Of a DNA stretch of 64,000 nucleotides, positions 58,901 through 61,900 are shown piece by piece. This DNA is from a virus (Duplodnaviria; Heunggongvirae; Uroviricota; Caudoviricetes), in the IMG/VR virus record IMGVR_UViG_2562617085_000008; one strand, 5' to 3'. Position numbers: made by a program. Numbering within the stretch: the stretch's first letter is position 1; every line of letters starts with the position of its first letter.

Positions 58901-61900
58901 GTAACCGATGCCATATCTCTTGATACATGGAAAAAAACAGTTAAACGTTTTTACGATACGCTGGTGGTGCAGTTTGATATTGAAGAAGCATGGGCAGAAC
59001 AACAACTGAAAAAGGTGACCAGATAGCTTTGTTGATTTTTCCCGAATCTGTGGTAAATTTGCCCAAACGATGGGCGTTTTATGCCTGACGTTAGAAGATT
59101 TTTTACACCCCGCCGCCTGGCGGGTTTTTTATGACTGAAATCGCGTCAGTACAGTAAACGCGCTGGTGGCGGTGAATACCGGTCTTTCAGCTTGCTGGCT
59201 TTTTTGACAAGAGTTATTGGTGTGTCACGTTAACCGAAAAAGGGAAAAAGACATGCTGAAACAGCAGGATATGACAGAAACTGCCAGAGCAGTGTTTAAT
59301 GAATTAAGCGTCACCGAACCGGCGACAGTCGGGGAGATTGCGCAGAATACTTACCTTTCACGCGAACGCTGCCAGTTAATACTGACCCAGCTTGTTATGG
59401 CGGGTCTGGCAGACTATCAGTTCGGTTGTTACAGACGCCTTCAGTCCTGAAGGCTTTTTTATTTGTGGTAAATGGGCGACTGGTGGGTGTTAGGGGCACT
59501 CACCAGCCATCTGCTCATGCGTCTGGATCACAAGCAAACCTCAGGCCCACTGCTTTGCGCAAAAGCGGTATGAGCCTATCAGAGACAGGCTTAATGATCC
59601 ATGTTTAATACTGTAAAAATATCCAGTTGTGAGTTAATCAACGCCGACTGCCTGGAATTTATCCGGTCGTTACCCGAAAATTCTGTTGACCTGATAGTCA
59701 CGGACCCGCCGTACTTTAAAGTGAAGCCTGAGGGCTGGGATAACCAGTGGACGGGTGATGAGGATTACCTGAAATGGCTGGACCAGTGTCTGGCGCAGTT
59801 CTGGCGGGTGCTGAAACCTGCCGGAAGTCTTTACCTGTTCTGTGGCCATCGCCTGGCATCTGACATTGAAATCATGATGCGTGAACGCTTCAGTGTGCTG
59901 AACCATATTATCTGGGCGAAGCCGTCCGGACGCTGGAACGGGTGCAACAAGGAAAGCCTGAGGGCGTATTTCCCCGCCACAGAGCGCATTCTGTTCGCGG
60001 AACATTATCAGGGGCCGTATCGTCCGAAAGATGCCGGGTATGAGGCGAAGGGCAGGGCACTGAAACAGCATGTGATGGCTCCGCTGATTTCTTACTTTCG
60101 TGATGCGCGTGCTGCCCTGGGGATAACGGCAAAACAGATAGTGGATGCCACAGGAAAGAAAAACATGGTGTCGCACTGGTTCAGTGCCAGTCAGTGGCAG
60201 CTACCGAACGAAAGCGATTATCTGAAATTACAGGCGCTGTTTGCCCGGGTGGCAGAAGAGAAGCATCAGCGCGGTGAACTGGAAAAGCCCCACCACCAGC
60301 TGCTGGAGACGTATACTTCACTGAACCGGCAGTATGCGGAACTGCAGAGTGAATATAAACATCTGCGGCGGTATTTTGGCGTGACGGCGCAGGTGCCGTA
60401 CACGGATGTGTGGACGCATAAACCGGTGCAGTACTATCCCGGGAAACATCCGTGCGAAAAACCGGCAGAAATGCTGCAGCAGATAATCAGTGCGAGCAGT
60501 CGTCCGGGTGACCTGGTTGCAGATTTCTTCATGGGGTCGGGTTCGACAGTCAAAGCCGCGATGGCGCTGGGGCGTCGTGCAACTGGCGTTGAGCTGGAGA
60601 CTGAACGTTTTGAGCAGACGGTCAGGGAAGTACAGGATTTAGTCAGTCAGAACGGATGATATTGCAGGATTAGTTACGTACCGTTATTATCCTGCGCCCG
60701 GCCCTTTAGCTCAGTGGTGAGAGCGAGCGACGCATAATCGCCAGGTCGCTGGTTCGAATCCAGTACAACGCGCCACACTTATTTTCCCTGGCTCGCTTTT
60801 GCGGGCCTTTTTTTAAATGTCTCACAATTCAGGCGGTTGACTGTTGTCTGGTTTGCGGGGAGTTTGTTAAAAGAAACTGGCATGGTGAATCCCCCTGTGC
60901 GGAGGGGCAATCAGCAACCAGGTATATGGGGTAATCGCGGATTCAGGTGCTGGTACTGAATTCACCGGGAGGCACCCGGCACCATGCAAGAAAAAGAATG
61001 TGCATGCAAACATGCCCCTCTCCGGAGGGGCTTTTTTATGGGTAAAAAAATGCCCGAATGGGTTCGGGCAATAGCATGAGATACTGATATTGTTGTGTTG
61101 TTATCGTGTGGATTTTAACCAGGGTTTATCAGGCTGCGCAACTGCGTGGCCTTTTTTCATTTCTTGGGCTGTAGTCCCCGTGTGTCATTCAGGCTTCCGG
61201 ACTACAGCCCACTCCATATCTGATTTAATACACTATCCCGGCCGGGAGGAATAATGACATTTAAACATTATGATGTTGTCAGGGCGGCGTCGCCGTCAGA
61301 CCTTGCTGATGCACTTGCGCAAAAAATTCGTGAAGGATGGCAACCATATGGTGGGCCGTTTTCTTCGTATACGGATGATGGCGCAGCACTTATTCAGGCG
61401 ATTGTCGCAGAAGGTGATGTGAGCACACCTGTTGTGGTGAAGCCGACAGGTGGAGAAGGTGCAGTAATCAGCGCCACCAGCGACCCCGGGTATTACTTTG
61501 TTGTGGTTCTGGCAGGGCAGTCAAACGGCATGTCGTATGGTGAAGGTCTTCCGCTGCCGGAGACATATGACCGTCCGGACCCGCGCATTAAGCAGCTGGC
61601 GCGTCGCAGTACGGTGACACCGGGCGGTGTCGCCTGTAAATATAACGACATCATTCCGGCGGACCATTGTCTGCATGATGTGCAGGACATGAGCCGCCTT
61701 AACCATCCGAAAGCGGACCTGTCAAAGGGGCAGTACGGAACCGTGGGGCAGGGGCTGCATATCGCCAAAAAATTGCTGCCGTTTATACCGGCGAATGCGG
61801 GCATTCTGCTGGTTCCGTGCTGTCGTGGTGGTTCAGCGTTCACCACCGGAGCTGATGGCACATACAGTGACGCGAGTGGTGCCTCGGAGAATTCAACCCG

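Follow-up and report, generated by a model that had tools for sequence, protein, structure and literature searches.

A Chimeric tRNA Pseudogene Probably Derived from the ileZ-argN-argO Cluster in a Lambdoid Prophage of Escherichia coli O157:H7

Introduction

The closest described relatives of the locus reported here are the ileZ-argN-argO clusters of the phages 933W (AF125520), Stx2a_1447, and Nil3 (AM051322), in which three separate tRNA genes lie downstream of Q and a DNA methylase gene and upstream of the stx/cargo site. In the 933W record, ileZ is identified as a tRNA-Ile reading AUA, while the argN of Nil3, with a TCG anticodon, is predicted by ARAGORN. Only ileZ and argO are annotated in P27. 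Tandem arrays of similar tRNA genes, such as the tandem tyrT genes of E. coli, and short direct repeats in E. coli are known to lose the interval between the copies and to leave a hybrid gene. In the classical deletions within tandem tRNA genes, the parents are isoacceptors and the hybrid still folds.

Here we describe a locus in which the 5′ two-thirds of a phage ileZ is joined to the 3′ third of argO (tRNA-Arg UCU). The locus lies at 60700-60775 of a 64,000-nt stretch of DNA, IMG/VR record IMGVR_UViG_2562617085_000008, which was analyzed whole and is called the window below. We regard it, with a probability of roughly 90%, as a non-functional chimeric tRNA pseudogene that arose by one 174-bp deletion between the T-arms of ileZ and argO and then spread.

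Prophage Context

The window equals positions 1,692,983-1,756,982 of EC4115 (an O157:H7 chromosome of the EC4115/TW14359 type) and includes two prophages in tandem. Prophage A is Sp9 of Sakai, the nleA prophage at ompW. Prophage B starts at an integrase (44334) beside an ompW fragment; Sakai has no such prophage at this site. A near-identical prophage is present at ompW in O103:H2, and O111:H- has a rearranged version next to yciI. The gene order in prophage B is Q, a 198-nt ORF, the methylase, the chimera, STnc100/AgvB, a DUF6645 esterase, and a holin. We found no stx in prophage B; the stx-equivalent site holds STnc100 and AgvB (Table 1). Prophage B is a non-Stx lambdoid prophage at ompW. 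The first-pass annotation had placed the locus beside the stx insertion site of Stx phages, which is right for the position and wrong for the prophage. In the lambdoid prophages of Sakai, the cargo site has been reported to carry convergent sRNA pairs of this kind (Tree et al., PMC4104026).

Prophage A has a related cluster of its own, with an intact ileZ-type and an intact argO-type tRNA gene on either side of a decayed argN. The latter was missed by both ARAGORN and Rfam, and its fold is no better than those of shuffled sequences.

Table 1. Positions of the chimera, its neighboring elements, and the related tRNA cluster of prophage A in the window.
Feature	Position	Strand	Remarks
Putative promoter-like stretch	60662..60690	+	Corresponds to the "pT putative tRNA promoter" of 933W
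ileZ-derived 5′ part	60700..60748	+	5′ acceptor strand, D-arm, anticodon arm, variable loop, start of T-stem
G at tRNA position 33	60732	+	Private to the chimera; T in all 7 intact ileZ alleles aligned
Anticodon CAT	60733-35	+	Inside the ileZ-derived part
Crossover interval CTGGTTC, 7 nt	60749..60755	+	Common to the T-arms of ileZ and argO
argO-derived 3′ part	60756..60775	+	Rest of T-loop, 3′ T-stem strand, ACAACGC, discriminator G, CCA
Intrinsic terminator of the tRNA cluster	60790..60814	+	GGCTCGC-TTTT-GCGGGCC followed by T7; terminator scan
STnc100	60851-61043	+	Convergent with AgvB; stx-equivalent site
AgvB	61045-61106	-	Followed by the 648-aa DUF6645 esterase ORF
Intact ileZ-type tRNA (CAU; AUA after lysidine modification), prophage A	2540..2615	+	ARAGORN; Rfam 70.9 bits; RefSeq "tRNA-Ile"
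Decayed argN, prophage A	2617..2682	+	Acceptor halves kept; anticodon loop lost in a 12-nt deletion; alignment with Nil3 and 933W
Intact argO-type tRNA-Arg (UCU), prophage A	2696..2772	+	ARAGORN; Rfam 71.4 bits

Make-Up and Parentage of the Chimera

The sequence read at 60700-60775 is GGCCCTTTAGCTCAGTGGTGAGAGCGAGCGACGCATAATCGCCAGGTCGCTGGTTCGAATCCAGTACAACGCGCCA. We aligned it with the clusters of Nil3, 933W, Stx2a_1447, P27, the chromosomal prophages of O111:H2 and O55:H7, and locus A. The deletion was placed by gap-tolerant pairwise alignment together with the alignments to intact clusters; a MAFFT global alignment misplaces it. From 60700 to 60755, the locus is the ileZ of Nil3, 933W, and Stx2a_1447 in every base except 60732, where the chimera has G and all the intact relatives compared have T. 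One further base differs from the ileZ of P27 and one from that of locus A. From 60749 to 60775, every base agrees with the 3′ part of argO as found in Nil3, 933W, Stx2a_1447, and P27. The stretch shared by both alignments is bracketed by a G specific to ileZ at 60748 (A in argO) and a G specific to argO at 60756. The first-pass annotation had described a fusion, by deletion at the T-arm, of the 5′ part of a CAU tRNA to the 3′ part of a tRNA-Arg(UCU), and these flanking diagnostic bases bear it out. The CAU anticodon stands in an ileX-like body, as in a tRNA-Ile2. The D, anticodon, and T arms all align to the tRNA family model RF00005, with a G-U pair closing the T-stem and a single A-C mismatch in the anticodon stem that intact ileZ also has.

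The chimera locus equals that of Nil3 minus exactly 174 bp. The absent segment comprises the 3′ end of ileZ, the whole of an intact argN, and the 5′ two-thirds of argO. Over the 116 nt upstream, only 60668 and 60732 differ from Nil3, and downstream of the junction the two are the same through the terminator and beyond, apart from a T7/T8 run. Intact clusters in the same methylase-to-STnc100 context are present in more than 1,300 genomes. Judged by sequence, a Nil3-like cluster is the closest intact relative and the best model for the parent. Prophage A was considered as the parent and set aside: it differs from prophage B in its flanks, in the 3′ end of its argO (with discriminator A and an additional CACCA), and in its remnant of argN, whereas Nil3 fits on both sides. 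The first-pass annotation had presented prophage A as the keeper of both parental tRNAs. Both genes are indeed intact there, but the actual parent would be Nil3-like. It had also stated that intervening tRNAs were removed, and relative to Nil3 an intact argN is missing; the argN of prophage A is itself already decayed.

The extent of the repeat at the join depends on the ileZ allele. In every close relative, the ileZ T-loop is GGTTCAAATCC, not GGTTCGAATCC, so the perfectly shared stretch is only the 7 nt of CTGGTTC. A rarer ileZ allele with GGTTCGAATCC occurs in ETEC1748, in an unrelated tRNA cluster, and only with a G allele of that type as the parent would the shared stretch be 15 nt. The description of the event as a clean homologous deletion is therefore not upheld, with only 7 nt perfectly shared, or 15 nt at most and with a rare allele.

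Since intact clusters are collinear with the chimera locus on both sides, and the junction recurs in 162 independently assembled complete genomes, the chimera is, on this comparison, not a chance resemblance.

Loss of the tRNA Structure

The two acceptor halves, GGCCCTT (60700-06) and ACAACGC (60765-71), form two of seven standard pairs (G1-C72 and U7-A66). Pairs 2-6 are absent, and the 3′ strand comes from argO. The local match to RF00005 extends from 60706 to 60765 (model positions 7-64 of 71, 37.3 bits) and leaves the acceptor stem outside, in agreement with the first-pass statement that the acceptor halves cannot pair. As a local partial match, it scores above the gathering threshold (37.3 vs. 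29); for the intact tRNAs of locus A, the match covers model positions 1-71 and the scores are 70.9 and 71.4 bits. ARAGORN predicted just two tRNAs in the whole window, at 2540-2615 (CAT) and 2696-2772 (TCT), and left 60700 without a prediction. It predicted no tRNA on three other chimera-bearing loci and recovered all three tRNAs on two intact loci. The minimum free energy fold of the chimera is no better than those of shuffled sequences (z = -0.97; z = -3.91 for intact ileZ). We also looked for an alternative acceptor stem in the flanks. There is no GCGTTGT upstream, and the 5-bp GGCCC/GGGCC pairing downstream is that of the terminator hairpin.

A well-scoring cloverleaf with a paired acceptor stem was the result that the first-pass annotation had named as evidence against a chimera. 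Neither ARAGORN (no tRNA) nor Rfam (a partial match) gave a full one, but the NCBI pipeline annotates a 71-nt "tRNA-Met" at 60705-60775. This RefSeq gene is without a pseudogene flag in EC4115, O111:H- 11128, O103:H2 FWSEC0007, and O145 RM8995, and all chimera matches listed in the E. coli genome search carry it. In the same genome where the chimera is called "tRNA-Met", RefSeq names the intact ileZ "tRNA-Ile". In our view, this "tRNA-Met" call is a false positive of the annotation, made probably because the tRNA body is intact and the Rfam score exceeds the gathering threshold. The chimera should carry a pseudogene flag and be excluded from counts of tRNA genes.

The U at tRNA position 33 is near-universal. 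In the chimera, this position is G in all 27 copies read and T in none of them; the 27 comprise five genome loci (four strains, with EC4115 twice) and 22 IMG/VR contigs. No intact ileZ with G33 was found in 5,426 complete E. coli genomes; matches to a G33 ileZ query there reach 98.7% at most, at 7,490 places in 3,053 genomes. G33 fits decay following inactivation, with the deletion perhaps preceding the U33G change.

The pairs of the acceptor stem are identity elements for TilS and IleRS. The hybrid retains the D-arm, the anticodon arm, and the 5′ acceptor strand of ileZ, but with the 3′ acceptor strand of argO. With no acceptor stem, neither RNase P and CCA-end processing nor aminoacylation of a chimeric RNA would be expected.

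Distribution and Spread

A search of 5,426 complete E. coli genomes with a 75-nt query spanning the junction gave 162 carriers, nearly all with 100% identity to the query (at a query coverage of at least 80%, 163 records reach at least 99% identity, and at least one of these is a partial match to argO only). The carriers include O157:H7, O111, O103:H2, and O145. The whole 401-nt context is present at 99% identity or more in 77 genomes. The junction also occurs in 22 IMG/VR contigs; it had no match among 50,697 records of isolated phage genomes and none among the GTDB species representatives. In O157 and O103:H2, the chimera lies at ompW; in O111, it lies next to yciI.

The same chimera is carried by at least three combinations of flanks. 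The first, that of the window, has the methylase upstream and the Nil3-type sequence downstream. The second shares this upstream side and has a downstream side of the locus-A type, with the switch right after the CCA (O145 RM8995 and three IMG/VR contigs). The third has a different upstream side from about -40 on and is found with a T8 terminator in twelve IMG/VR contigs, plus one with T7. The identical junction is always linked to G33, and comparison of these copies indicates a single origin of the chimera and subsequent spread via phage mosaic recombination. The allele would have traveled with a prophage that integrates at ompW and would have entered other lambdoid backgrounds of EHEC by recombination, the breakpoints lying within the invariant tRNA sequence or at its edges.

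Among the matches listed, two chimera-carrying O157:H7 genomes have intact ileZ in 9-10 places each. Because other prophages hold these 9-10 intact copies, the loss of the cluster is probably neutral in carriers of the chimera, and a phage tRNA cluster would be dispensable where many prophages carry redundant copies. The junction together with G33 forms a unique tag of single origin and could serve as a natural marker for module exchange among EHEC lambdoid prophages, since the chimera occurs at ompW of O157:H7 and O103:H2, in O111 and O145, and with at least three flank combinations. The breakpoints right at the tRNA edges support a role for invariant tRNA genes as homology patches in module exchange. 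The chimera leaves the current understanding of phage tRNAs and of Stx phages unchanged; its value lies in the correction of an annotation and as a marker of mosaicism.

Mechanism of the Deletion and Alternative Explanations

The ancestor would have been a lambdoid phage with the usual ileZ-argN-argO cluster, flanked on one side by the genes for the late-gene antiterminator and the DNA methylase and on the other by the stx-equivalent cargo site. Between the T-arms of ileZ and argO, which are nearly identical, the 174 bp would have been lost, with the ends joined within the 7-nt direct repeat. From general knowledge of such events, the most likely mechanism is a RecA-independent slipped-strand or short-homology deletion, and not classical homologous recombination, because the homology is short with either ileZ allele and the repeats are 174 bp apart.

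The join could instead have been made by unequal homologous exchange, via RecA or a phage recombinase, between the ileZ of one lambdoid genome and the argO of another that was co-resident or co-infecting. O157 genomes provide the opportunity, with 9-10 copies of the cluster in different prophages, and the mosaic flanks show that recombination at the tRNA edges has carried the chimera into several backgrounds. Efficient RecA exchange needs homology longer than 7-15 nt, however, and the perfect homology at this join is 7 nt, or at most 15 nt with the rare ileZ allele. One Nil3-like parent also fits both flanks, over about 116 nt upstream and 130 nt downstream. A hybrid with the D-arm (TTAGCTCAG) as the point of the ileZ/argO join had no matches in IMG/VR, nor did the reciprocal argO/ileZ T-arm hybrid, the absence of which speaks against exchange. 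The sequence is compatible with both slippage and unequal exchange between two phage genomes; we consider the exchange, the chief rival mechanism, unlikely.

The elements on either side of the chimera suggest that it could be transcribed. The 40 nt before it are identical to 933W, where the stretch from -38 to -10 is annotated as pT. The hexamers TTGCAG and TATTAT are below the threshold of a consensus promoter scan, so that promoter activity upstream of the chimera is putative. The hairpin at 60790-60814 is predicted in the fold of 60700-60815, and the 933W record marks this element, behind argO, as a terminator. With both the promoter-like sequence and the terminator intact, an RNA of about 115 nt may be made. 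Such a transcript might act as a tRNA-like decoy or small regulatory RNA and be kept in many EHEC for that reason. The intact D, anticodon, and T arms would suit this role, as would the location next to DNA encoding known prophage sRNAs (PMC4104026) and the 100% conservation across 162 genomes and several flank contexts. The flanks are equally identical over 401 nt (77 genomes at 99% or more), though, so the conservation of the chimera reflects recent spread and not selection. The chimera folds no better than its shuffled versions, its allele is uncommon (found in 162 genomes, and intact ileZ in 3,053), and our literature searches gave no report of such an RNA. We therefore consider retention for an RNA function very improbable. 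The specific version, in which the transcript is stable, works as a decoy for an anticodon nuclease or modification enzyme or as an Hfq-independent sRNA, and owes G33 to adaptation, is just as hard to credit.

Integrases often target the region from the T-arm to the 3′ end of a tRNA gene and replace the 3′ part with a copy borne by the element, so that a join in the T-arm could be an att junction left by an integrated or excised element. Here, the sequence 3′ of the join simply continues as it does behind argO in Nil3, without any insert; the nearest integrase is 15 kb away at the prophage end, and what was lost corresponds precisely to the DNA from a given position in one tRNA to the equivalent position in the other. 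An integrase scar is accordingly a very remote prospect. Finally, the collapse of two similar tRNA genes during sequencing or assembly, for which only the repeat nature of the locus speaks, is already refuted by the identical junction, which recurs in 162 complete genomes produced by many laboratories on many platforms as well as in 22 IMG/VR contigs.

Comparison with Known Systems

The chimera occupies the place of ileZ-argN-argO in 933W, Stx2a_1447, and Nil3, with little or no difference in the 40 nt upstream, the 5′ part of ileZ, the 3′ part of argO, or the terminator. Unlike these phages with their three separate genes, prophage B lacks 174 bp, has G in place of U33, and has no functional tRNA left. 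In 933W, stxA starts 91 nt after argO, where prophage B has STnc100 and AgvB.

Erosion of the ileZ-argN-argO cluster is recurrent. As in P27 and in prophage A/Sp9, the cluster of prophage B is eroded, the ileZ and argO sequences are conserved, and argN is no longer a tRNA. Both flanking tRNAs survive in P27, where argN has diverged, and in prophage A, where it has the 12-nt deletion, unlike in prophage B, where a single deletion would have inactivated all three tRNAs.

In the literature searched on ileZ/argN/argO and on chimeric, hybrid, or pseudo-tRNAs in Stx prophages, we found no description of this allele. In the type of change, the chimera resembles the classical deletions in tandem tRNA genes, and both have lost the interval between short direct repeats. 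The ileZ/argO hybrid differs in that it cannot fold, because the acceptor stems of its parents are unrelated. A deletion between short repeats that leaves a hybrid pseudogene is otherwise an ordinary event.

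Annotation and decay of the tRNA genes

RefSeq (PGAP) labels the chimera of prophage B, in which the 5′ part of ileZ is fused to the 3′ part of argO, as a 71-nt tRNA-Met (60705-60775) with no pseudogene status. The same label was seen in five of the five chimera loci opened (four strains), and in all chimera-bearing matches listed in the junction search. The intact CAT-anticodon gene of the same genome is a tRNA-Ile in RefSeq, but a tRNA-Met in ARAGORN, a name that is drawn solely from the anticodon.

The argO gene of prophage A (Sp9 of Sakai) has an A discriminator and carries an additional CACCA past its CCA end (ACAACGCACCACACCACACTT, 2766-2785), whereas the 3′ end of this gene in other phages reads ACAACGCGCCACACTT. 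The O145 RM8995 chimera joins a G discriminator to downstream sequence of the prophage A type. This mixture places a recombination breakpoint exactly at the tRNA 3′ end.

In prophage A, argN has decayed. Both of its acceptor halves (CCGCCAC/GTGGCGG) are retained, but relative to the phages Nil3 and 933W it has lost 12 nt, among them the TCG anticodon loop, and no tRNA tool returned a match to the remnant. The decay of argN is a second, independent decay event within the same tRNA cluster. In E. coli ETEC1748 (NZ_CP122719.1, 2055908-2056217), an ileZ allele with the T-loop GGTTCGAATCC is the first gene of a different prophage tRNA cluster, of the order Ile-Thr-Gly; thus, ileZ circulates within clusters of at least two architectures.

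Cargo of the two prophages

The site downstream of the tRNA genes, which is the stxAB position of Stx phages, is occupied in both prophages by convergent sRNA genes, STnc100 (175 and 145 bits at the two sites) and AgvB. The sole RefSeq annotation there is a minus-strand "hypothetical protein", marked as partial. Past this site lies a large DUF6645/esterase-type ORF, intact in prophage B (61254-63200, 648 aa) and split into two annotated pseudogene pieces in prophage A (3296-4116). The effector genes of the Sp9 right arm (nleA, nleH1-2, nleF, nleG, espM1, and NleG-family fragments) are interspersed with ISEc8, remnants of IS256, IS630, and IS3, and a degraded integrase.

Features of prophages A and B
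Feature	Prophage	Coordinates	Strand	Remarks
Decayed argN	A	2617-2682		between both intact tRNAs
STnc100	A	2882-3090	+	sRNA gene
AgvB	A	3092-3151	-	56.6 bits, right at threshold
Type III effector cargo region	A (Sp9 right arm)	29200-43500
DicF sRNA	B	48838-48889	-	adjoins dicB; Rfam 76.7 bits
hokD/sok type I toxin-antitoxin locus	B	55620-55794	+	Rfam 111.7 bits
STnc100	B	60851-61043	+	sRNA gene
AgvB	B	61045-61106	-	96.5 bits

Integration at ompW

Prophage B and Sp9 lie in tandem at ompW (44163-45464), and the prophage B integrase directly follows the ompW C-terminal fragment. In Sakai, the corresponding fragment is followed by yciE instead of prophage B, and Sakai therefore lacks prophage B at this site. 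In O103:H2 FWSEC0007, a B-like prophage stands alone and adjoins an intact ompW.
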